In this document: in pieces, positions 25,767-37,164 of the stretch
How the letters are laid out: every line of letters begins with the position of its first letter
Numbering within the stretch: position 1 is the stretch's first letter
DNA from: Blastocatellia bacterium
Lineage (GTDB): Bacteria > Acidobacteriota > Blastocatellia > RBC074
Reading direction: 5' to 3'
Assembly (NCBI GenBank): GCA_035714085.1
Contig: DASTMP010000173.1
Span: forward strand, 6,170-70,169
Length of the DNA stretch: 64,000 nucleotides
Program-made: the position numbers and the translations under genes
The notes under the pieces: model-generated
Seen by the model: the letters and a program-made list of their open reading frames with translations, nothing else
Databases searched by the model: none
What the model was told of the DNA's origin: nothing

Positions 25767-26945
25767 ATGAAAGCAATTAATTACCTGCCGTTGATAACCA
25801 AAAACAGTTTCCGCAATCGCCGTCGCAGCCTGTTGACGATCGGCAGTCTGATGGTGTCTTTGTGCCTGCTCGTAATGTTGATGGCGATGTACAAAGTGTT
25901 GTTCTACGGCTCCGAACAGACTCCGGCGCAGGCCGTGCGTATTATGATGCGCCATAAGGTTTCGCTCGCGCAGGCGTTGCCGCTTTCCTATGAAGGGAAG
26001 ATTCGACAGGTTCCGGGCGTGAAAGCGGTCTCGGTACGGCAGTGGTTCGGCGGGACCTATCGCGACGCGCGCGAAATGCGGAATTTCTTCCCGCGGTTCG
26101 CCGTCAGGCCCGCGGATTTATTCGAAGCCTATCCGGAGTACGTGATTCCGGAGGAACAGAAGCAGGCGTTCGCGCGAGAGCGCACGGGCTGCGTGGCGTC
26201 CAAACACCTGGCCGAAAAATTCGGCTGGCAAGTGGGCGAGCGCATCACGCTGGTGGGCGACATCTTTCCGACCACGCTCGAACTCAATCTGGTCGGCCTC
26301 TATGATGAGCCAAACAAGTTCGATGTGCTCTTCTTCAACTGGGATTATCTGCGCGACAGCCTGAAAGCGGCCGGGACGCTGGATCTGGACTTTACCTCGC
26401 AGTATCTGGTGTTGGCTGATAGTCCTGACAACGTGCCTCGCGTCATCAAAGCCATTGACGACATGTTCGACAACTCGCCCTTTCCGACGAAGACCGAATC
26501 GGAACAGGCGTTCGCGCTCAGCTTCGTCGGGTTTCTCGGCAATCTGAAAATGTTTCTGCTGGCGATCGGCGGCGCCGTAACGTTCACGATCCTGCTGGTT
26601 TCGGCCAACACGCTCTCGATGAGCGTCCGCGAGCGCATACGCGAGGTCGGCGTCCTTAAAACGTTGGGCTTCACGCCGGGAACGATCTTCGGAATCCTGC
26701 TCGGAGAAGGAGCGATGATCGCGATCGTCGGCGGCGTTCTGGGCTGCGCGCTGGCGGAAGGATTTTGCGTGATGCTTCGCAGCGCGCCGATTCCGATCCA
26801 GCAAATCCGGGTCATGAACGTGACGCCGTTGATCTTCATGATCAGCCTCCTTATCTCGCTGTTGGTCGGATTGATCAGCGCGATGGTTCCGGCGGCCGGG
26901 GCGGCGCGGCGGCCGATTCTCGATTCTTTACGCCACACTGGATGA
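25767..26945 (+). CDS. ABC transporter permease, FtsX/MacB-type
   Basis: It has an N-terminal TM, a large periplasmic domain and a C-terminal FtsX 3-TM bundle ([26 protein letters not shown]). The RBS is AAGGAGG. Confidence 0.8.
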
Positions 26946-26949
26946 TTTT

Positions 26950-28116
26950 ATGGCGATACCAATTGCTTACAACCTGCGCAACCTCGTCGTGCGCAAAACT
27001 ACAACTGTCATGACCGCCGTCGGCATCGGGCTGACCGTCGCCGTGCTGGTCGCCGATATGGCGCTGGTCGAAGGACTGCGGACGGCATTCAAGGCGACGG
27101 GAAATCCGCTGCAACTCGTGGTCATGAGAAAAGGATCGAACGCCGAGCTGAACAGCACGGTGACGCGCGAAGCTTTTCAGATAATGAAGGTGGAACCTCG
27201 TATCGCCGTAAACGACGCGCGCGAACCGATGGCCTCGCCGGAAATACTGACTGTCGTCAACCTGCCTAACGTCGACAGCCCGACCGGCATGAATCTCACG
27301 GTGCGCGCGCTATCGCAGGTCGGCGTCGAGATGCGCGGCGCGAAGATTCAGCCCGGCGGGCGATGGTTCCAATCCGGGCAGCGCGAAATCGTCGTCGGCA
27401 AATCTGTGGCCAAGCGTTATCCGAACGCGCAGCCCGGCAAGCGAGTGCGCTTCGGGCGCGGCGAGTGGGAAGTCGTCGGCGTCTTTGACGCAGGAGATTC
27501 GGCCTTCAACAGCGAAATCTGGGGCGAGTTGAATCAGATCGGCCCCGATTTCAACCGGCAGGACACGGTCAACTCGGTCCTGGTTCGCGCCACCGACTCG
27601 GCGTCGCTTCAGGCGCTGAAAAATTCGCTCAACGACGACCGGCGCCTCGGCGTCGACGCCATGGCGGAGCGCGAGTATTACGATCAGCAGACGTCGTCGG
27701 GCGCGCCGCTTCAAATCTTCGGACTTCTGGTGGCGGTGATCATGGCCGTCGGCAGCAGTTTCGCCGCGATGAACACGATGTACGCCGCCGTCGCCCGCCG
27801 GGCGAAAGAAATCGGCACGCTGCGCGTGCTCGGCTTTTCGCGCGGCAGCATTATGCTCAGCTTCCTGATCGAATCGCTGCTGCTCGCGTTAATCGGCGGC
27901 GTCCTCGGATGCCTCTTGGCGTTGCCGATCAACGGCGTGACGACGGGCGTCGGCAGCTTCGCCACTTTCAGTGAAATCGCCTTCGACTTTCGCGTCAGCC
28001 CGGGCGGCATGCTCGCCGGGATTATTTTCGCGCTCGTCGTGGGCGCCATCGGCGGGCTCTTTCCTGCAGGCAGCGCGGCTCGCAAGGAGATTCTGACCGC
28101 GCTGCGAGAGATTTAA
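26950..28116 (+). CDS. ABC transporter permease, FtsX/MacB-type (second copy)
   Basis: The architecture is the same as the first copy ([27 protein letters not shown]). It starts 4 nt after the previous stop. Confidence 0.8.
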
Positions 28117-28122
28117 CGAGAT

Positions 28123-29505
28123 ATGCCAATCAGCAATCAACAAGACGCAATGGACGCGGAGATCAAAAACCTGCGCATTGATCGTTCCGCGAAACAGAAA
28201 AACGGATCCGGCCGCGGTCTCCTGCGCTGGATCCTGGTCAGTTTCGGCCTGTCGGTTTTGCTTGGAGTCGCTTTTGTCATTTACGGCAGGCTCAATGCGG
28301 CGGTCGAAGTCGATACCGTCCGCGTGCGAACCGCTTCGACTTCGTCTCCGGGCGCTCCGGCCGGCGCGACGATCCTGAACGCCACCGGCTACATCGTTAC
28401 AGCGCACAAGATCGAACTGGCTTCCAAGGTCTCAGGCCGCGTCGCATGGATCGGCGTCGAGAAGGGCGACAAGGTGAAAAAGGGACAGGTGCTGGTCAGG
28501 TTGGAGGATGAAGAGTTTCGCGCGCGGGTGACCGAGGCCCAGGGCCAATTGAATTCGCTCAAGGCGCGGCTGGCCGCGCTCGAAAACGGCTCGCGCCCCG
28601 AAGAAACCGCTCGCAGCCAGGCAGATCTGGAACAGGTGCGCGCCGATCTGGAGAACGCCCGCGTGACGCTCAACCGCACGCGATCGCTGGTCGAGCATGG
28701 CGTGATGTCGAGGCAGACGCTCGACGACGCGCAGGCGCGTTACGACGCGCAGGTCGCCAAATACGCGTCGTATGAAAAGACCAATGCGCTGGTCCGCATC
28801 GGCCCTCGCCGAGAAGACATTGACGCTGCGAACGCGCAGGTCAAACAGGCCGAAGGCACGCTCGCCTTCGCGCAATCGCAACTTGACAACACCGTAATCA
28901 CCGCGCCGATCTCAGGCGCCATACTGGAGCGCAACGTCGAACGCGCCGAATTCGTCACGACGGGTTTTGTCAGCGACCGGGGCGCGAAAGGTTACGTTGT
29001 CTCGATGGCCGATCTCAACGACCTTCAGGTGGAGTTGGATATCAATCAGAACGATTTCGCCAAACTTGGGCCGCGCCAACCGGCCATCATCACGACCGAC
29101 GCCTATCCGGATCGCAAATACCAGGGCGAGATCATCGAAATTTCTCCCGAAGCGAACCGGCAAAAAGCGACCGTCCAGGTAAAGGTGAAAGTTCTCAAGC
29201 CCGACGAATATCTGCGCCCGGAGATGAACGCCAGCGTCGCTTTTTATACGCCGGAAAAACCCGGCGAAAAGGGGGCGAATCAAGCTTCGGCGGCGAAACC
29301 GCTGATCACGATTCCCTCCTCCGCCGTGCGCGACGGCGCGGTCTTCATGGTCGTTGACGGAAGAGCCGTCCGCCGCCAGGTACAGGTATCAGGAACATCG
29401 CAACAGGGCGCGACGATTTCAAACGGACTGATCGGCGGCGAGGATTTGATCGTCAATCCCCCCGCCGATTTGAAAGACGGGCAGAAAGTGCGCCCGAAGT
29501 CATAG
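28123..29505 (+). CDS. Periplasmic adaptor (HlyD/MFP family) of the efflux system
   Basis: It has an N-terminal TM, a lipoyl-like segment ([14 protein letters not shown]), a long coiled coil and a beta-barrel C-terminus ([14 protein letters not shown]). Confidence 0.8.
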
Positions 29506-29606
29506 CTTCAGAGACACAGATAAGGTAGGGGTAAAAGAGCATCTTTATTGTTTTCCCTCCGTGGCTCTGTGGCTGGTTCAGTTTTCTTGAAGGAAGAGCA
29601 AAAGTC

Positions 29607-30323
29607 ATGGCCGAAACAGTTATCGAAACCCAACAGCTTTCCAAGGAATTCGTCCGCGATGACTTTCACGTCGTCGCGCTGAAAAACGTGGACCTTGCCA
29701 TTCATCGCGGCGAGTTCGTCGCGCTGATGGGCCCGTCCGGTTCAGGTAAATCCACGCTGCTGCACTTGATCGCCGCGATGGATCGTCCGACCGACGGCAA
29801 GATTTTCGTGCTCGGGGAAGACCTGCGCAGCTTGAGCGACAGCGAGATGGCGCATTGGAGAAATCAGCACATCGGATTCATCTTTCAATCCTTCAACCTG
29901 ATCCCGGTGATGACCGCGCTGGAGAACGTCGAACTGCCGTTGAAGCTGACCAATTTAAAGAAGCGCGAGCGCGTGGAGCACGCGACGACGGCGTTGAACC
30001 TGGTCGGGCTGGGTGATCGATTGAACCATCTGCCGCGCCAACTCTCCGGCGGGCAGGAGCAGCGGGTCGCAATCGCCCGCGCCATCGTCACCGATCCCGA
30101 TCTGATCCTGGCCGATGAGCCGACCGGCAACCTCGACGCGGCTTCGGCGCAGGAAGCGTTGACGCTGCTCGAAAAACTCAACCGCGATTACAACAAGACC
30201 ATCATCATGGTCACACACGATCCGAACGCGGCGAGTTACGCGACCATAGTACGGCAACTCGATAAAGGGACTTTGCTGACTGACGGGCGAGAGTCCTTCC
30301 AGACTTCGGTGAAACGTGGCTGA
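29607..30323 (+). CDS. ABC transporter ATP-binding protein (MacB/LolD-like)
   Basis: Motifs are [11 protein letters not shown] (Walker A), [14 protein letters not shown] (signature) and [11 protein letters not shown] (Walker B). Confidence 0.9.
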
Positions 30324-30337
30324 GAAAGAGAATTAGC

Positions 30338-30889
30338 ATGAGAAAAGTAGTCGTTACGATGTTCTTGACATTGGATGGCGTCATGGAAGATCCGCAGAAT
30401 TGGTCTTTCCCATACTGGAATGACGAAATTGCGAAGTTTAAAAAGGACGAGCTGTTCGCTACTGACGCGCACCTGCTGGGACGAGTGACCTATGAAGTTT
30501 TTGCAGCCGCCTGGCCATCCAGGGCAGATGAAGCGGGGTTTGCCGACAGAATGAACGGCCTTCCAAAGTACGTTGTGTCAACGACCCTGGAAAAGGCTGA
30601 GTGGAACAACTCAACGATCATCAAAGAGAATATTGCGGAAGAAGTCTCGAAGCTGAAACAACAGCCCGGCCAGGACATTTTGGTCGCCGGCAGCGCCACC
30701 CTTGCGCAAACACTGATGCGACATGACCTTACTGATGAATATCGGCTCTTAGTCTACCCCATTGTTCTGGGAAGTGGAAAGCGCCTCTTTAAAGGCGGGA
30801 GCAAAGCTGGCTTGAAACTTGTAGAAACTAAGGCATTCAGTTCAGGGGTCGTATTGCTTCGCTACCGGCCCGACGGAAAAGAACCGTAA
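30338..30889 (+). CDS. Dihydrofolate reductase-family protein (RibD C-terminal domain type)
   Basis: MRKVVVTMFLTLDGVMEDP...GRVTYEVF...ILVAGSATLAQTLMRHDLTDEYRLLVYPIVLGSGKRLF is typical of this family. Confidence 0.7.
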   Translation: MRKVVVTMFLTLDGVMEDPQNWSFPYWNDEIAKFKKDELFATDAHLLGRVTYEVFAAAWPSRADEAGFADRMNGLPKYVVSTTLEKAEWNNSTIIKENIAEEVSKLKQQPGQDILVAGSATLAQTLMRHDLTDEYRLLVYPIVLGSGKRLFKGGSKAGLKLVETKAFSSGVVLLRYRPDGKEP

Positions 30890-30893
30890 ATCC

Positions 30894-31121
30894 TCAGCGC
30901 GGGTTTTTGATCCTCTTTCCAGTCAGGCGCAGGCGCTTCTTTTGAAGACTTTGGGCGGTGAGAATGAGGCCGGCGCGGTCAATCCTTTCGAGGGCTTCGA
31001 TCTCCCGCTCGCCAAGCCCGGCCTTTGCGGCTTCGCCGCGCGGATCGGCCAGGAACCGCTCGCGCAAGTTTTCGTCAACATAGATCTTGGCGAGGAACGC
31101 TTCCAAACGCGCGGCGCTCAT
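30894..31121 (-). CDS. 75-aa Cys-free helical protein translationally coupled to the MNIO gene (Nif11-/LigA-like helical pattern; role unknown)
   Basis: ATG 31121-31119 overlaps the MNIO stop TGA 31120-31118 (ATGA). The protein is MSAARLEAFLAKIYVDENLRERFLADPRGEAAKAGLGEREIEALERIDRAGLILTAQSLQKKRLRLTGKRIKNPR. The longer ORF-track start is unlikely. Confidence 0.5.
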   Translation of the reverse strand: MSAARLEAFLAKIYVDENLRERFLADPRGEAAKAGLGEREIEALERIDRAGLILTAQSLQKKRLRLTGKRIKNPR

Positions 31122-32008
31122 GCGGCCTCCTTTTCCATTCGCTCGAATTGGCGCGACCTTCCCTCGGCCAGGGCTTCGCGGGCGCAATCCAATTGCCGAA
31201 GCAGAGTGTCAATCGGCGGATAAGCTCCATCGCGTTCCAGGATCACCGTCAACGGATTGGGAGCTAATGCGGCGAGTTCGGTCAGAAGCTGATATACCAC
31301 GTCGGGCACATCGTGCAGATGATCGTCCAGCAGGCGTCGCTTGCCGAGCGCTTCCACCCACTTTCCTCCGGCCAGATGCGCGGCGGCTATTCTCTCCGAG
31401 GGAAGCCGCTTTAAAAACTCCGCAGCGTCGTAACCGAAGTTCGTCGCGTTCGCGTGAAGGTTGTGCAGGTCGAGCAGCAGGTCGCCTGGCGATGAGTCAA
31501 TGATCCTGTTGATCCAGTCAATCTCGTCGTAATCGCTGCCAGGCGGATCAATCAGCGTGGCGATGTTTTCGACTAGAGGCGCCGCGCCTACCACCGCGCG
31601 CGCGCGTTCCAAGTTCGCCGCCGCGCCCTCGATCGTGGCGTCTGTTCGCGGAGGCGCGGCCAGATGACCTATCTCAACACCCCCGCCGCGCACAAAGGCC
31701 AGATGCTCCGACCAGTACTCAGGCTCTACCTCTTCACACAGCCTCGCTGTTTTTTCCAGGAGCTTCGCATCAACCGGGACTGATGAAGCCAGGCCCAGAC
31801 TGACGCCGTGCAATACTACCGTTGTTTGAGCCGCCAACGTGCGCAGCGCGCGCCGTTCGTCTCGCGGCGCGTCGAATAGATCGTCGGCAATCACCTCCAC
31901 AACATCAATTCGATCAAGATTCGAGAGGATGCCCACGGCCAATTCGCCGCGCCAGCCCAAGCCGACACGGTCCCGAATCGTTTTTTTCCCGGCGCTCTTA
32001 AATTTCAT
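31118..32008 (-). CDS. DUF692 / MNIO (multinuclear non-haem iron oxidase; MbnB/TglH/BufB-like) family enzyme
   Basis: The conserved blocks I remember for DUF692 are all present: VGLGWR, VLHGVSLGL, WSEHLAF, LVENIA, LLLDLHNLHANATNFGYD, AAHLAGG, LLDDHLHDVPD and ILERDG. ATG 32008-32006 overlaps the upstream stop (ATGA). Confidence 0.8.
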   Translation of the reverse strand: MKFKSAGKKTIRDRVGLGWRGELAVGILSNLDRIDVVEVIADDLFDAPRDERRALRTLAAQTTVVLHGVSLGLASSVPVDAKLLEKTARLCEEVEPEYWSEHLAFVRGGGVEIGHLAAPPRTDATIEGAAANLERARAVVGAAPLVENIATLIDPPGSDYDEIDWINRIIDSSPGDLLLDLHNLHANATNFGYDAAEFLKRLPSERIAAAHLAGGKWVEALGKRRLLDDHLHDVPDVVYQLLTELAALAPNPLTVILERDGAYPPIDTLLRQLDCAREALAEGRSRQFERMEKEAA

Positions 32009-32922
32009 GATGATCCGCAGCCCCCACAGCCCCCGCCGCCACAACCGCTTCCCCCATCCGAAGAACCGCCACAGCTACTCCCTCCGTCCGAAGAGCTGCA
32101 AGATGAAGATGAATCGGACGAACCGCATGACGATCCGCAAGAAGAACTACTTGTCGCTTGAGGGAAGAGAGTTCGCGCATATCCGAATGGAGTCGTCGCA
32201 AGAGCCGTGACTCCGAAGACCGCGGCGAACATCGCCAATTCCGCGGATGCGCTGCCCGGACTGAATGAATTGACTTGTGTTCTCAACCCTGAGTAGAGAT
32301 TCGCGATGTCCGCCAACGTCGCCTTGCCGCGAGCGGTCAGACGCGGGAAAGAGGAGAAGGCGGCGATGGCCATTGCGGCGATCATCATCACAACGAGGAA
32401 GCCCACAGGTCTCTCTCTCGAAAGGCCAATCACGATTTTGATCACGCCGACAACCCCCAAAGCCATCAATGCCAGCAGCAACCGCATCAGCCGGTCGCGA
32501 CGGACGGCGGCGTCGGGCATCAGCCCCGCGCGTTCCAATTTGTCGCGGTAAGGTCGGAGCAGCGACTTCAAGTTGTCATCTTTGAAGATGGATGGCGCCT
32601 CGCCCGGATCGCCGAACTTTTTCAACACCTCATACTCAATCGGGTGTTTAACCATATCGTTGGTCACGTGATCGGCGCGGCGGATGATCTGGTCATCCAT
32701 GGCCAACAGCCCACGGTCAACAAGCGAGATCACCGCCACACGCAAAGCTTCGTCCTCGCCGCCGCGCAAATAGGCGACCAGATATGGATCACCCAGGTCT
32801 ATCTTTGGCGCAGGGCCGGATTCCGCGCGGCGTCGCAGAATGGCGATCGCTAAGAAGACGACCAGGCTGAAGCAGAAATATAAGAGGAGAAATTCAGGGC
32901 CGCCTAGATCGAAAGGATTCAT
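32005..32922 (-). CDS. TIGR04222-type membrane protein with a C-terminal Cys/Ser/Gly-rich tail
   Basis: The N-terminus NPFDLGGPEFLLLYFCFSLVVFLAIAILRRR plus DPYLVAYLRGGEDEALRVAVISLVDRGLL is the TIGR04222 signature as I remember it. There are 3-4 hydrophobic segments. The last 49 aa are TSSSSCGSSCGSSDSSSSCSSSDGGSSCGGSSDGGSGCGGGGCGGCGSS. ATG 32922 has a GGAGGTG RBS. Confidence 0.7.
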   Translation of the reverse strand: MNPFDLGGPEFLLLYFCFSLVVFLAIAILRRRAESGPAPKIDLGDPYLVAYLRGGEDEALRVAVISLVDRGLLAMDDQIIRRADHVTNDMVKHPIEYEVLKKFGDPGEAPSIFKDDNLKSLLRPYRDKLERAGLMPDAAVRRDRLMRLLLALMALGVVGVIKIVIGLSRERPVGFLVVMMIAAMAIAAFSSFPRLTARGKATLADIANLYSGLRTQVNSFSPGSASAELAMFAAVFGVTALATTPFGYARTLFPQATSSSSCGSSCGSSDSSSSCSSSDGGSSCGGSSDGGSGCGGGGCGGCGSS

Positions 32923-33236
32923 GGACACCTCCTGTTTAGCATTCTACGTTCGCGCAATTCCCGGCGTACGTTAAATCCAGGTTAGGTGTTCAAGTATGGA
33001 CCAATCATGCTTCAACGAGAAAGCGTTTCACATTATTCCGAGCTCGGCTTTGATAAATTCCTTTCAGCGGGATTGTGCGGCTCGGCTTCATGCAATTGGA
33101 GAAAGCGCCCCAACCCATGGCTATTTGATAGCCTTTGATTGCCAGGGATGAGCGTTCTCGGTTACATTCGCCCTGCTTCAAATCGCAACATTCCAGAACT
33201 ATTGTCATCGGCAGATTGGAATAAAAGGACGGTGTG

Positions 33237-34565
33237 ATGATGCGTCTCAAAGCCTTATTGATCAGCTTTTGTTTGTTCCTTGCCTGTGTCGGCTTCGCAG
33301 CCTTCGGAATTGACGAACCTTCGGCGGGTCAAGCCTCGACTTCCGCCGGAGTGAAGGCGTTTGTCGGCGCGCGCCTCATTGACGGCGCCGGTAGGCCCGC
33401 CGTCGAAAACGCGGCGCTGATAGTGCGCGATGGCAGAGTGGAAGCGGTCGGACCGGCCTCAGAAGTAAAGCCTCCCGCCGGCGCCCAAACGATCAACCTG
33501 ACAGGCAAATTCATCATTCCCGGCCTGATCTCGACGCACGTCCACATCTCCGACGTTCAGGGCTTGCGGCCTCCCGCTTACACTGACGAAAACACAATGC
33601 GCCAGCTCGGCGTCTTCGCGCGTTATGGCGTCACGACTGTCCAGAGCCTGGGCGGAGAGAAGGAACCGGCCTTCAAGGCGCGCGAGGCGCAGAACACGCC
33701 ACAGCTTGATCGGGCGCGAATTTACCTGGCGGGAGACGTCATCACCGGCAAGGAGCCGCAGGAAGCCCGGCAAATGGCGGCCCGTGTCGCCGCCGCGAAA
33801 CCCGACATCATCAAGATTCGCGTCGACGACAACCTCGGCGCGACGGCCAAGATGCCGCCCGAAGTCTATCGCGCGATCATCGATGAAGCTCATCAACGGG
33901 GGTTTCGCGTCGCGGCCCACATTTTCTATCTCGAAGACGCAAAAGACCTGCTGCGCGCCGGCGCCGACTTCATCGCCCACAGCGTGCGCGACAAGGAGAT
34001 TGACGATGAGTTCATCTCGTTGATGAAAAAGCGCGACATTCCATACTGTCCCACGCTGACGCGCGAACTCTCGGCCTTCGTCTATGAATCTACGCCCTCG
34101 TTCTTCTCCGATCCTCTCTTCCTGCGCGAAGCCGACCGCGAAGTGGTGGCCCAGTTGCAGGAGCCGCAGCGCCAGGAGGCGATGCGAAAATCGGCGACCG
34201 CTCAGCGCTATAAGGCGGCGCTCACTGTCGCCCTGCGAAATCTCAAGAAAGCGGTCGACTCCGGACTTATGGTAGTGATGGGCACTGACGCCGGCGCTTT
34301 CGCCAACCGCTTCCAGGGCTATTTCGAGCATCTCGAAATGGAGATGATGGCCGAAGCCGGACTCACGCCCACGCAAATTCTGCGTTCCGCCACCGGCGCC
34401 GCCGCCCGCGCGATGCGGGTTGAGGGGATCGGCGCGATAACGAAAGGCGCGTGGGCCGATTTCGTAGTGCTGGAGCGAGACCCTTTGAAAGATATCCGCA
34501 ACACCCGCGGCATCGCTTCAGTCTGGATCGCAGGAAACCAGGTCAGGGGAATCGAGCCACGGTGA
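33237..34565 (+). CDS. Secreted amidohydrolase-family metallohydrolase
   Basis: It has a signal peptide, the metal motif PGLISTHVHI (HxH), a later HS.. His and a GTDAG Asp region. The ORF-track start 33234 is GTG and ATG follows at 33237. Confidence 0.75.
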   Translation: MMRLKALLISFCLFLACVGFAAFGIDEPSAGQASTSAGVKAFVGARLIDGAGRPAVENAALIVRDGRVEAVGPASEVKPPAGAQTINLTGKFIIPGLISTHVHISDVQGLRPPAYTDENTMRQLGVFARYGVTTVQSLGGEKEPAFKAREAQNTPQLDRARIYLAGDVITGKEPQEARQMAARVAAAKPDIIKIRVDDNLGATAKMPPEVYRAIIDEAHQRGFRVAAHIFYLEDAKDLLRAGADFIAHSVRDKEIDDEFISLMKKRDIPYCPTLTRELSAFVYESTPSFFSDPLFLREADREVVAQLQEPQRQEAMRKSATAQRYKAALTVALRNLKKAVDSGLMVVMGTDAGAFANRFQGYFEHLEMEMMAEAGLTPTQILRSATGAAARAMRVEGIGAITKGAWADFVVLERDPLKDIRNTRGIASVWIAGNQVRGIEPR

Positions 34566-36282: not shown

Positions 36283-37164
36283 TCAATCCTTTGGCGCTTG
36301 GTGTTGAATGGCGCTCCCATGTCTGCAGTCGAACACTCCTTCGCCGGGCGGCGCAGTCTGCTGTTCGTAGTCGCTCTGAACCATAAAGAATAGGTATTGG
36401 GTTCGCGCACGCGCGGAGCCGGCGGGGACTCGAGCTTTATCGCTGCGGAAGCGCAACCGCACGGAGACTAAGTGTCGCGCCATTCGCAGTTCGTCGCCGA
36501 AATACTGATCGCGCAGCGGCAGCCCCAATTCCGCCCGCGCCCGGTTGAGCGTCTCCTCGCACTCGCCCAGCTCGTCAAAGCTCGCCGCGTCCTTGTAGCC
36601 CAGCCCATGCAACAACTCATGCAGCGTCGTGAAGCCGATATCGAAAGAGTCCCGCACCTCGCGCGGCGCCTGCATCTGGCGGAAATCGTCGAAGTCAAGC
36701 CGCAAGCGCCAGACCACCAGGCGCAAGCCCGTTACGGCGTCTTCGTAGCGCAACCCTTCATTCAATTGACCGAAATTCACCGAAGGCGAACCGGAGTGGT
36801 CCTCGATGATGAATACGAACCCCGAGCCTAGCGAACGGGAGAGCATCCGCCTGGCGGCCGCCGATCCTCCGGATTGGGCGGATTGGGCGGATTGGGCGGA
36901 TTGGGCGGATTGCGCGGCGCCAGGCGCCAGCGAGCCGTCTTTCGCAAAATGGAGTTCGCTGAATCCGGTGATGCGGCGCAGGCTTCGCGTCAATTCCTCG
37001 ACGTGGGCGTCGGAAGGTTTGTACCCTGCGCCGCTCAACCAGACGCCGGGCATCTTTGGAAACGCCGACTGCGCGAATGCGATTCCGGTCAATAAAAACA
37101 ATACGGCCATCGCGCCGGCTGCAATATACACACTCCGGCGCGTCATCATTTTAAACGTTTTCAT
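36283..37164 (-). CDS. Secreted hypothetical protein with HExxH motif and (AQS)n repeat
   Basis: It has a signal peptide (VYIAAGAMAVLFLLTGIAFA), TTLHELLHGLGY (HExxH) and the repeat SAQSAQSAQSAQSAQS encoded by a 9-bp tandem repeat. Confidence 0.5.
   Translation of the reverse strand: MKTFKMMTRRSVYIAAGAMAVLFLLTGIAFAQSAFPKMPGVWLSGAGYKPSDAHVEELTRSLRRITGFSELHFAKDGSLAPGAAQSAQSAQSAQSAQSGGSAAARRMLSRSLGSGFVFIIEDHSGSPSVNFGQLNEGLRYEDAVTGLRLVVWRLRLDFDDFRQMQAPREVRDSFDIGFTTLHELLHGLGYKDAASFDELGECEETLNRARAELGLPLRDQYFGDELRMARHLVSVRLRFRSDKARVPAGSARARTQYLFFMVQSDYEQQTAPPGEGVFDCRHGSAIQHQAPKD
36871..36915. repeat. 9-bp tandem repeat, 5 units (4x ggattgggc + 1x ggattgcgc), in frame within the CDS
   Basis: This was read directly from the sequence. 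It encodes (AQS)5 on the minus strand. Confidence 0.9.

Follow-up and report, generated by a model that had tools for sequence, protein, structure and literature searches.

A Cys-Gly tail on a TIGR04222 membrane protein as the proposed substrate of the adjoining MNIO in a Blastocatellia bacterium

Multinuclear non-haem iron-dependent oxidases (MNIOs) are a large and rapidly expanding class of peptide-modifying oxidases, and to our knowledge all of their characterised substrates are small peptides or small secreted proteins. The locus discussed here raises the question of whether an MNIO may also modify the tail of an integral membrane protein. It lies in a stretch of 64,000 nucleotides from a Blastocatellia bacterium (GenBank assembly GCA_035714085.1, contig DASTMP010000173.1, positions 6,170 to 70,169), the whole of which we call the window, and it comprises three genes on the minus strand that form one translationally coupled unit (32933..30894), each of them present in the window as a single copy. 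The first encodes a membrane protein of family TIGR04222 with a C-terminal tail made of Ser, Gly, Cys, Asp and Thr, the second an MNIO and the third a protein of 75 amino acids (aa). We treat the three as a unit because a divergent amidohydrolase-like gene bounds them on the 5' side and a convergent gene on the 3' side.

Our answer is that the tail is probably modified by the neighbouring MNIO, as judged from sequence comparison. The strongest argument for the tail as substrate, and for a thiooxazole as product, is that a constant Cys-Gly tail is accompanied by one or the other of two enzyme classes that are unrelated but have the same characterised chemistry, the MNIO in most related loci and a radical S-adenosylmethionine (SAM) enzyme of the SbtM family in the others. 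For the explanation as a whole, in which a coupled operon provides a tail that acts as core peptide, an MNIO that oxidises it and a partner protein for the MNIO, with a metal chelator as the product, we put the probability at roughly 0.6. The substrate idea is already known and not new with us, having been published in 2025, when TIGR04222 tails were proposed as MNIO substrates from bioinformatics alone (PMC12452194, Microb Genom 2025). The genes and the features of the tail are as follows.

32005..32922, minus strand: gene for the TIGR04222 ('near_uncomplex') membrane protein, 305 aa, the proposed substrate; ATG at 32922, TGA at 32007-32005
32928..32933, minus strand: Shine-Dalgarno sequence AGGAGG, 5 nt 5' of the ATG of the TIGR04222 gene, by direct reading of the sequence
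32008..32154, minus strand: S/G/C/D tail of 49 residues with 7 Cys (S22 G16 C7 D3 T1), the proposed MNIO-modified core
32014..32043, minus strand: terminal motif C-GGGG-C-GG-C-G, residues 294-303, the best-conserved part of the tail and invariant in the alignment of close homologues
32005..32008, minus strand: ATGA overlap of 4 nt common to the TIGR04222 stop and the MNIO start; the last Ser codon and the TGA give TCATGA, and the MNIO ATG is 32008-32006
31118..32008, minus strand: gene for the MNIO (DUF692), 296 aa, the proposed tail-modifying oxidase, matched by Pfam MbnB_TglH_ChrH
30894..31121, minus strand: gene for the 75-aa NHLP/LigA-like protein, proposed as an obligate partner for the MNIO; the ATG (31121-31119) forms an ATGA overlap with the MNIO stop

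The tail and its conservation

Translation of 32005-32928 on the minus strand gives the tail as TSSSSCGSSCGSSDSSSSCSSSDGGSSCGGSSDGGSGCGGGGCGGCGSS, and the C-terminal end of the protein reads TLFPQATSSSSCGSSCGSSDSSSSCSSSDGGSSCGGSSDGGSGCGGGGCGGCGSS before the stop. The ATG at 32922 is taken as the true start of the gene, having AGGAGG upstream, and the homologues likewise begin with MNPF. At the other end the ATGA overlap implies translational coupling with the MNIO gene, and an overlap of 4 nt or a gap of a few nt is found at this junction in most related loci. The 75-aa gene overlaps the MNIO gene in the same way and also has an AGGAGG of its own at 31131-31126.

A sequence-only reading of this DNA had described a tail of 49 residues with seven Cys and a gene end that falls within the start context of the MNIO gene, and both descriptions proved exact. 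The same reading took the Cys spacing to tighten towards the C-terminus; this holds over the last three Cys and fails in the rest of the array, in which the successive gaps are 3, 8, 8, 9, 4 and 2 residues. Its view that the tail is disordered is consistent with the AlphaFold2 model, which has a confidence score (pLDDT) below 50 for residues 256-305. Residues 1-256 contain a single Cys, and S, G, C, D and T together account for 22% of them; given that background, the chance of 49 consecutive residues of these five kinds is about 1e-32. The DNA that encodes the tail has two repeats, one of 30 bp (2 copies) and one of 12 bp (2.6 copies).

The searches for homologues used the N-terminal domain only (256 residues), and the tails of the sequences that were found are thus independent observations. 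There were 421 homologues, of which the best 120 were analysed. These have 52-95% identity and are mostly from Blastocatellia-type metagenomes, and in all but a few the protein ends in an S/G/C(/D) tail, 21-67 aa long and with 4-10 Cys. A further 80 loci, at 35-78% identity, came from a scan of species-representative genomes; they are in metagenome-assembled genomes (MAGs) labelled as Acidobacteriota, Verrucomicrobiota, Methylomirabilia, Nitrospirae, Binatia, Dormiibacterota and other groups, and 71 of these loci have complete copies of the gene, from which the statistics on the tail are taken.

In these 71 copies there are 2 to 9 Cys per tail, with a median of 7. The residue preceding Cys is G or S and the residue directly after it is Gly in 94% of cases (436/465), while the commonest gap between Cys is 3 residues. 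The terminal motif, in the general form C-G(2-6)-C-GG-C-G, is found in 63 of the copies and across many phyla, and exactly two residues lie beyond the last Cys in 56. Tail length is far from fixed, at 38-67 aa (6-9 Cys) even where the N-terminal domain is 83-95% identical to that of the query, and it changes by gain or loss of units such as SSDGGSSCGG, which matches the 30-bp tandem repeat in the DNA. A variable number of Cys-Gly modules ahead of a fixed terminal triple-Cys motif suggests a capacity that is additive together with one constrained site.

The comparison of tail lengths and Cys counts among homologues, which had been suggested as a check on the tail, thus finds the tails kept. We also looked for homologues that have lost the Cys tail and kept the MNIO, as would be expected if the MNIO had a different substrate, and there were none among the relatives examined.

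A few irregular cases should be mentioned. The tails are frameshifted in two of the loci (L042 and L079), probably through assembly errors or because the genes are pseudogenes. A protein of 683 aa from the library (P0352) was considered as a triple fusion of TIGR04222 protein, MNIO and small protein, and was rejected, as its tail region AVVAVAVVAAVAAVA is the GC-rich Cys-Gly repeat read in a shifted frame; the likeliest reading is a gene call with a frameshift and not a genuine fusion, and the protein is not used as evidence. In an Omnitrophica MAG (L065:6001-8625) and in a metagenome contig that matches it (L081, minus strand, about 7667-5040) the Cys tail (...CGGCGGEP) continues in frame with no stop codon for some 600 aa. 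The extension has TrkA-like NAD-binding motifs together with a signature of potassium channels (TTTGYGD), and may be a genuine fusion or the result of a lost stop codon.

The enzymes beside the tail

The MNIO of the window is a clear member of Pfam PF05114 (MbnB_TglH_ChrH), at 214 bits against a gathering threshold of 25 (E 2.9e-63), and it has no N-terminal hydrophobic signal. Its best NCBIfam models are BufB (173 bits against a cutoff of 310) and HvfB (150 bits against 360), so that it scores below the equivalog level for both. The closest solved structure is 3BWW (E 1.7e-23), which is 72% identical to HvfB, and the conserved His, Asp and Glu motifs of the family (HG, EH, VEN, LD..N, HxAG, DxH and ERD) are aligned between the two.

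Eight of the 80 loci end before the downstream region, which leaves 72 that are informative on the gene following the TIGR04222 gene. The MNIO gene is directly downstream in 69 of them, and in the other three an SbtM-family radical SAM gene is adjacent; a candidate Cys-modifying enzyme adjoins the Cys-tail gene in all 72. The MNIO is better conserved than the membrane domain, at 52-89% identity against 35-78%. The suggestion that the tail resembles a core peptide or a metal-chelating Cys array and is served by the MNIO gains support from these counts and from the conservation of the Cys tails.

The three exceptions, two in Nitrospirae (L052, L053) and one in Omnitrophica (L065), have neither the MNIO nor the small protein, and their tails still have 7-8 Cys or more. 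The genes that replace the MNIO all belong to the SbtM family (TIGR04082).

L052:6874-7950: SbtM-family radical SAM/SPASM gene in place of the MNIO gene
L053:6851-7990: the same, the protein being 88% identical to that of L052
L065:8636-9667, minus strand: the same

The L052 and L065 proteins reach 538 and 511 bits with TIGR04082, for which the cutoff is 350, the SPASM domain is matched, and the CX3CX2C motif reads CELHCAHC in the translated open reading frames (ORFs). The alignment covers positions 196-516 of the model only, the N-terminal 195 positions of SbtM being missing. A scan of metagenomes with the radical SAM protein added 21 loci, in 8 of which it is paired with a TIGR04222 Cys-tail gene, while a ninth has a fragment of a Cys tail at the edge of the contig (these nine are L081-L084, L090, L093, L094, L096 and L101). 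The MNIO and the small protein were found in none of the metagenomic radical SAM loci.

In the reaction of SbtM itself a Cys or Sec of the peptide substrate loses 4 H and becomes a thio(seleno)oxazole, according to descriptions that cite Lewis et al. 2021. Replacement by a member of this family is therefore an independent pointer to heterocyclisation of the Cys of the tail. With regard to the SbtM/SbtMa system as a whole, the likeness is that an SbtM-family gene adjoins the TIGR04222 Cys-tail genes exactly where the MNIO is missing; the differences are that it is absent from the window, belongs to another enzyme class and is independent of O2. The radical SAM enzyme looks like an O2-independent alternative to the MNIO.

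On the MNIO side there are two systems with which the operon may be compared. In the oxazolin system of Haemophilus influenzae HvfB turns the six Cys of the AEGKCGEGKCG repeats of HvfA (3 copies) into copper-binding 5-thiooxazoles. Like our operon it has Cys-Gly units near the C-terminus and an MNIO that needs a partner, and there too a fusion of partner and MNIO works. However HvfA is a small secreted peptide with a Sec signal, HvfC is of the DUF2063 type with a RiPP (ribosomally synthesised and post-translationally modified peptide) recognition element (RRE), and there is a DoxX gene, where here we have the tail of a membrane protein, a 75-aa NHLP-like protein and no DoxX. In the case of the bufferins (Buf1/DUF2282 and Buf2, with BufB and BufC) Cys again becomes thiooxazole, and the modified products chelate copper and give protection from copper stress (PMC12452194). 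BufB is the top-scoring family for our MNIO, but the bufferin precursors are folded, exported by Sec to the periplasm and accompanied by a DUF2063 partner. The NCBIfam and Pfam signatures of the bufferin and oxazolin precursors (DUF2282, Buf_6/12Cys, Buf_EGKCG) were found in none of the operon proteins, and the proposed substrate is polytopic and not a small secreted protein.

We propose that the disordered C-terminal tail of (S/G)-C-G units would be a core peptide borne by a polytopic membrane protein. The cytoplasmic MNIO, from the branch nearest BufB and HvfB, would oxidise the Cys of the tail one by one with O2 and an iron cofactor, most likely giving a 5-thiooxazole at each, with the isomeric oxazolone-thioamide as the alternative. 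The 75-aa protein, with its putative NHLP/LigA fold, would stand in for the DUF2063/RRE partner of other MNIOs, and its basic tail may, more speculatively, help to keep the enzyme on the inner side of the membrane. Modification would take place in the cytoplasm, after which the tail would either stay there or flip out behind a weak fourth hydrophobic segment. The product would be a membrane-tethered chain of heterocycles that bind soft metals, copper being the likeliest, with a capacity that scales with the number of Cys-Gly units. We rate a poly-thiooxazole product at a little short of an even chance and a function in copper buffering lower than that. The proposal predicts a loss of about 4 Da per Cys-Gly unit, a chromophore at 302-305 nm and dependence on the 75-aa partner.

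The membrane protein and the 75-aa protein

Outside its tail the proposed substrate is a straightforward member of TIGR04222, which is its sole NCBIfam match (118.3 bits against a cutoff of 43, E 3.9e-34; residues 17-244 on model positions 2-229 of 229), and the domain is followed by the Gly/Ser/Cys low-complexity C-terminal region that also goes with membership of the family. The sole Pfam match is DUF2207_C, a weak one over residues 48-216 (E 2e-4). DUF2207 proteins share a low-complexity C-terminal tail, and their layout of transmembrane (TM) segments and a soluble domain is similar to that of the TIGR04222 protein. However the Pfam score is 21.5 against a cutoff of 33, and the large N-terminal extracellular DUF2207 domain is missing here. 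Foldseek with the whole AlphaFold2 model gave no meaningful match in the PDB (best E 2.2), and a profile of the soluble domain (residues 36-140) matched nothing in PDB sequences or Pfam. An attempt to assign a winged-helix or RRE fold to the helix-helix-hairpin that the model shows in the soluble domain failed.

The hydrophobic segments are as follows.

32836..32892, minus strand: TM1, residues 11-29; Kyte-Doolittle 2.92, AlphaFold2 helix 9-34
32347..32481, minus strand: TM2 (residues 148-166) and TM3 (174-192), a hairpin with the loop LSRERPV; Kyte-Doolittle 2.62 and 2.23, AlphaFold2 helices 138-168 and 174-191
32182..32238, minus strand: marginal fourth hydrophobic segment, residues 229-247 (LAMFAAVFGVTALATTPFG); Kyte-Doolittle 1.62, simple Hessa sum +3.0

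The numbers of Lys and Arg residues are 0 before TM1, 4 in the 15 residues after it, 4 before TM2, 2 in the TM2-TM3 loop and 4 after TM3, and by these charge counts the N-terminus lies outside and the soluble domain (residues 30-147) is cytoplasmic. The side on which the tail lies depends on the fourth segment: if it spans the membrane the tail is periplasmic, and if it does not the tail is cytoplasmic. The caution of the sequence-only reading on this point was justified, as the segment is real and marginal (1.62 against 2.2-2.9 for TM1-3), and it is marginal throughout the family. Across the 71 homologues its median Kyte-Doolittle value is 1.64, against 2.3-2.55 for TM1-3, and the stretch free of D, E, K and R has a median of 16 residues and reaches 19 or more in only 33 of the 71. 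The 15 residues that follow the segment have a median of 2 K/R and no D/E, and AlphaFold2 splits the segment into two short helices, 226-236 and 238-243.

Modification must occur in the cytoplasm, as the MNIO and the radical SAM enzyme are both without signal peptides. The fourth segment is about 58 residues from the C-terminus, so that any translocation of the tail would be largely post-translational and the enzyme would have a period in which to act. The published analysis predicts a periplasmic tail (PMC12452194), whereas in ours the location depends on the fourth segment.

A different use of the same modification should be considered at this point. The MNIO may modify the tail while the membrane protein serves only as scaffold, giant leader or export device, the tail being cleaved near the conserved LFP(Q/R/K) and released as a soluble peptide metallophore, perhaps with oxazolone-thioamide or beta-carbon excision as the chemistry. 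Immediately ahead of the tail F253 and P254 are almost invariant, which would suit a cleavage site, and MNIO chemistry is varied. Some MNIOs, such as TglH and ApyH, act at C-termini, and the last Cys is two residues from the C-terminus in the 56 of 71 copies noted above. The authors of the 2025 study also suggest that the N-terminal moiety may act in biogenesis (PMC12452194). However the genes that recur in the cassette over the 80 loci are only those for a nucleotidyltransferase-like protein, the TIGR04222 protein, the enzyme and its partner, with no conserved protease or exporter gene among them. Where the MNIO is replaced the replacement is a radical SAM enzyme of a thiooxazole-forming family, and the S or G at the very end of the tail has another explanation, as the ATGA overlap forces a last codon of the form NNA. 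We consider release of the tail improbable, though it is the best placed of the alternatives to a tail that stays tethered to the membrane protein.

With regard to the 75-aa protein, it has no Cys at all, a basic C-terminus (LRLTGKRIKNPR, window 30897-30938) and four helices in its AlphaFold2 model (pLDDT 74). A profile search finds the family in all 67 MNIO loci that have sequence downstream of the MNIO gene, in 51 of them as a separate ORF with an ATGA overlap and in 11 as an in-frame fusion to the C-terminus of the MNIO; fragments of such fusions are also present among the protein library matches. The protein is not present in the radical SAM loci. We read it as an obligate partner of the MNIO because its occurrence follows that of the MNIO and not that of the tail, and because it is in many cases joined to the C-terminus of the enzyme. 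There is a precedent in the oxazolin system, where an engineered fusion with HvfB and HvfC in this order exceeds the two separate proteins in activity and HvfC is required for HvfB to attain its active mixed-valent iron state.

The affinities of the 75-aa family, which has 829 representatives at E up to 1e-3, are of an unusual kind for a partner. With the window copy NF038399 gives 30.4 bits (cutoff 40, E 3e-7) and LigA 21 (cutoff 25.3), and there is a weak match to Frankia-peptide. Among 43 family members NF038399 is matched in 42 and LigA in 40 (best E 2.3e-10), Frankia_peptide in 28 and an NHLP-related RiPP model in 22. In the PDB the family profile matches the leader domain of SonA, a borosin precursor (E 0.004), and SonA is also the best Foldseek match of the model (probability 0.89-0.95, TM-score about 0.55), at a weak E of about 0.4. 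DUF2063, in contrast, had no match in the 43 members at E up to 0.1, and our protein has 75 aa against about 250-260 aa for PME-type 1 partners. NGO1945 (3dee), TglI (8hi7) and MbnC were likewise unmatched in the profile search of the PDB and in Foldseek, which gave SonA, LigA and nitrile hydratase, with sensitivity limited by the model pLDDT of 74 and the small size of the domain.

The family resembles the NHLP, LigA and SonA leaders in profile and predicted fold, with the window copy below the cutoffs. It differs from them in that they are leaders of precursors that carry a core, while here there is no recognisable core, Cys or GG cleavage motif, and in that the 75-aa protein goes with the enzyme, in many cases as a fusion, and not with a Cys-rich sequence. 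After a conserved S-[LF]-x-x-K-[KR] the C-terminus is hypervariable (0-95 aa) and has no conserved target residue. The variable tails in the library (P0241-P0389) contain 21% Arg, with W, L and F spaced as in amphipathic helices, for example in RRWFPRLLARWRRP, and by their sequence the Arg-rich tails would suggest binding to membrane or nucleic acid. In one locus (L067:6905-9112) the fusion of MNIO and small domain extends in frame into a GNAT-like acetyltransferase region, giving an ORF of 735 aa.

These affinities keep alive a second alternative, as the fold family normally serves as RiPP leader and would be unusual for a partner: the 75-aa protein may itself be the true substrate of the MNIO, with a leader and a basic core, and the TIGR04222 protein a receptor or a protein of immunity or transport. 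Enzyme-precursor fusions do occur in borosins, whose SonA leader domain is the nearest structure, and the matches to NHLP-clan and RiPP-precursor models (NF038399 in 42 of 43) point the same way. MNIOs are also able to modify residues other than Cys (PMC12452194). Against this, the window copy has no Cys and only 24 of 136 tails in the family have any, the variable C-terminus offers no constant target, and our MNIO is nearest to the Cys-modifying BufB/HvfB branch. A gene 3' of the MNIO gene is moreover in the usual position for a partner and not for a precursor (PMC12452194). The protein also vanishes when a radical SAM enzyme replaces the MNIO, and the Cys tail stays. We regard a precursor role as unlikely, and prefer to see the 75-aa protein as the partner of an MNIO that acts on the TIGR04222 tail.

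Earlier work, objections and the surrounding DNA

The clusters described in the 2025 study (PMC12452194) are clearly related to ours: of the candidate substrates without a signal that are encoded beside MNIO genes about 40% are TIGR04222 proteins, their C-terminal tails are Ser/Gly-rich, Cys-studded and unstructured, the gene is 5' of the MNIO gene, there is no DUF2063, and the MNIO is close to those of bufferins and oxazolin. There are also differences. The members of those clusters are mostly from Actinomycetota, whereas the window is acidobacterial (Blastocatellia-like), and PME-type 2 partners are reported in at least 10% of the clusters, with many having no partner, where we find the 75-aa NHLP-like partner in 67 of 67 loci. 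The study mentions neither an SbtM-type radical SAM enzyme nor an upstream nucleotidyltransferase-like gene. It does list an unexplained family of very small proteins, 'adjamnio-V', to which the 75-aa protein may belong. What is new here is accordingly the universal NHLP-like partner and its fusions with the MNIO, the SbtM-type alternative, the Cys-Gly grammar of the tail with its terminal motif, and the upstream nucleotidyltransferase-like gene. A literature search found no experimental paper on the pairing of TIGR04222 proteins with MNIOs.

Several points weigh against modification of the tail by the MNIO and have to be set beside the evidence for it. The chemistry is extrapolated from relatives, as the MNIO scores well below the equivalog cutoffs for BufB and HvfB. 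The enzyme swap rests on about a dozen loci, and the radical SAM proteins match the SbtM model over positions 196-516 only. The proposed partner resembles the leader domains of RiPPs, which are normally parts of substrates, and has no similarity to DUF2063, TglI or MbnC. Insertion of the fourth segment during translation would leave the tail largely out of reach of a cytoplasmic enzyme. The literature search gave no biochemical work on any TIGR04222 protein. Finally, more than a quarter of TIGR04222 proteins have no C-proximal Cys and a third of the genomes with TIGR04222 proteins have no MNIO (PMC12452194), so that in other subfamilies the tail has some function apart from this enzyme.

The last point leads to a third alternative, that the tail functions in its unmodified form, as a thiol array of the metallothionein type or as a redox or Fe-S tail, with the MNIO acting elsewhere or in regulation. 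Arrays of the type Cys-x2-4-Cys bind soft metals unaided, and many TIGR04222 proteins occur without an MNIO (PMC12452194). However a candidate Cys-modifying enzyme is adjacent in all 72 informative loci, and it comes from two unrelated classes that alternate; the genes are translationally coupled; and the Cys-Gly context (94%) matches the known target motifs of MNIOs. An unmodified tail seems to us about as unlikely as a 75-aa precursor. As for a chance reading frame through GC-rich repeats or an assembly artefact, which the 30-bp and 12-bp tandem repeats and the frameshifted tails of L042 and L079 might bring to mind, it is effectively refuted by conservation: about 190 independent sequences, from a wide range of phyla, have the same tail at the protein level, with its end directly ahead of the MNIO start. 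The chance of such a composition is about 1e-32.

If the MNIO does modify the TIGR04222 tail, this would be a case of heterocyclisation of an integral membrane protein after translation and of a new kind of MNIO partner, and bacteria such as the Acidobacteriota would have a membrane-anchored buffer for copper or other soft metals. The alternation of MNIO and radical SAM would be a natural case of aerobic and anaerobic routes to one modification. One could go further and see in the cassette the usual RiPP logic turned inside out, with a membrane-protein substrate that becomes a tethered poly-thiooxazole metallophore, a core-less NHLP-type leader that activates or targets the MNIO in place of an RRE partner, in trans or as a fusion, and an enzyme-leader module interchangeable in other lineages with the O2-independent SbtM-type radical SAM; taken as a whole we find this generalisation rather doubtful.

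One further gene recurs with the cassette. In 63 of the 80 related loci (L008-L080) a gene for a protein of about 247 aa, like a Pol-beta-type nucleotidyltransferase, is directly upstream on the same strand (for example L009:2709-3452 and L056:5248-5991). The protein has weak matches to ANT, MntA and Polbeta and the motif G-S-x10-S-D-V-N. The gene is present in the radical SAM loci, including 6 of the 8 metagenomic loci that pair the radical SAM gene with a Cys-tail gene, but the window lacks it, as do the closest relatives for which there is upstream sequence (L001-L006); the lineage of the window has lost the gene.

Upstream of the operon there are two blocks of intergenic DNA, at window 32935-33075 and 33132-33233, that have 75-89% identity in three related loci (L003, L004 and L050), two of which (L004 and L050) have an insertion of about 1 kb between the blocks. 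The block proximal to the operon (140 nt) is probably its promoter and 5' untranslated region, as it ends in TAGAAT followed after about 15 nt by AGGAGG. An Rfam scan of 30700-33400 matched no RNA family, and scans for promoters and terminators gave nothing that exceeded the shuffled expectation. An ORF of 81 aa at 33005-33250 was considered in a search for a separate small Cys-rich precursor and rejected, as it overlaps the 5' region of the divergent amidohydrolase gene and is kept only in the closest relatives, where it is no better conserved than the DNA itself.

Beyond the 3' end of the cassette there is a plus-strand operon at window 25767-30323, convergent on the cassette, that encodes a pair of MacB/FtsX-type permeases together with a periplasmic adaptor and an ABC ATPase; a RibD-C/DHFR-like gene (30338-30889) separates it from the cassette. 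ABC genes of this kind are near only about 7-8 of the 80 loci, and their presence here is probably unrelated synteny. On the other side, at window 36283-37164 on the minus strand, an ORF of 293 aa has a signal-like N-terminus, a (QSA)n repeat (AQSAQSAQSAQSAQS) and a HELLH motif of the zinc-protease type.

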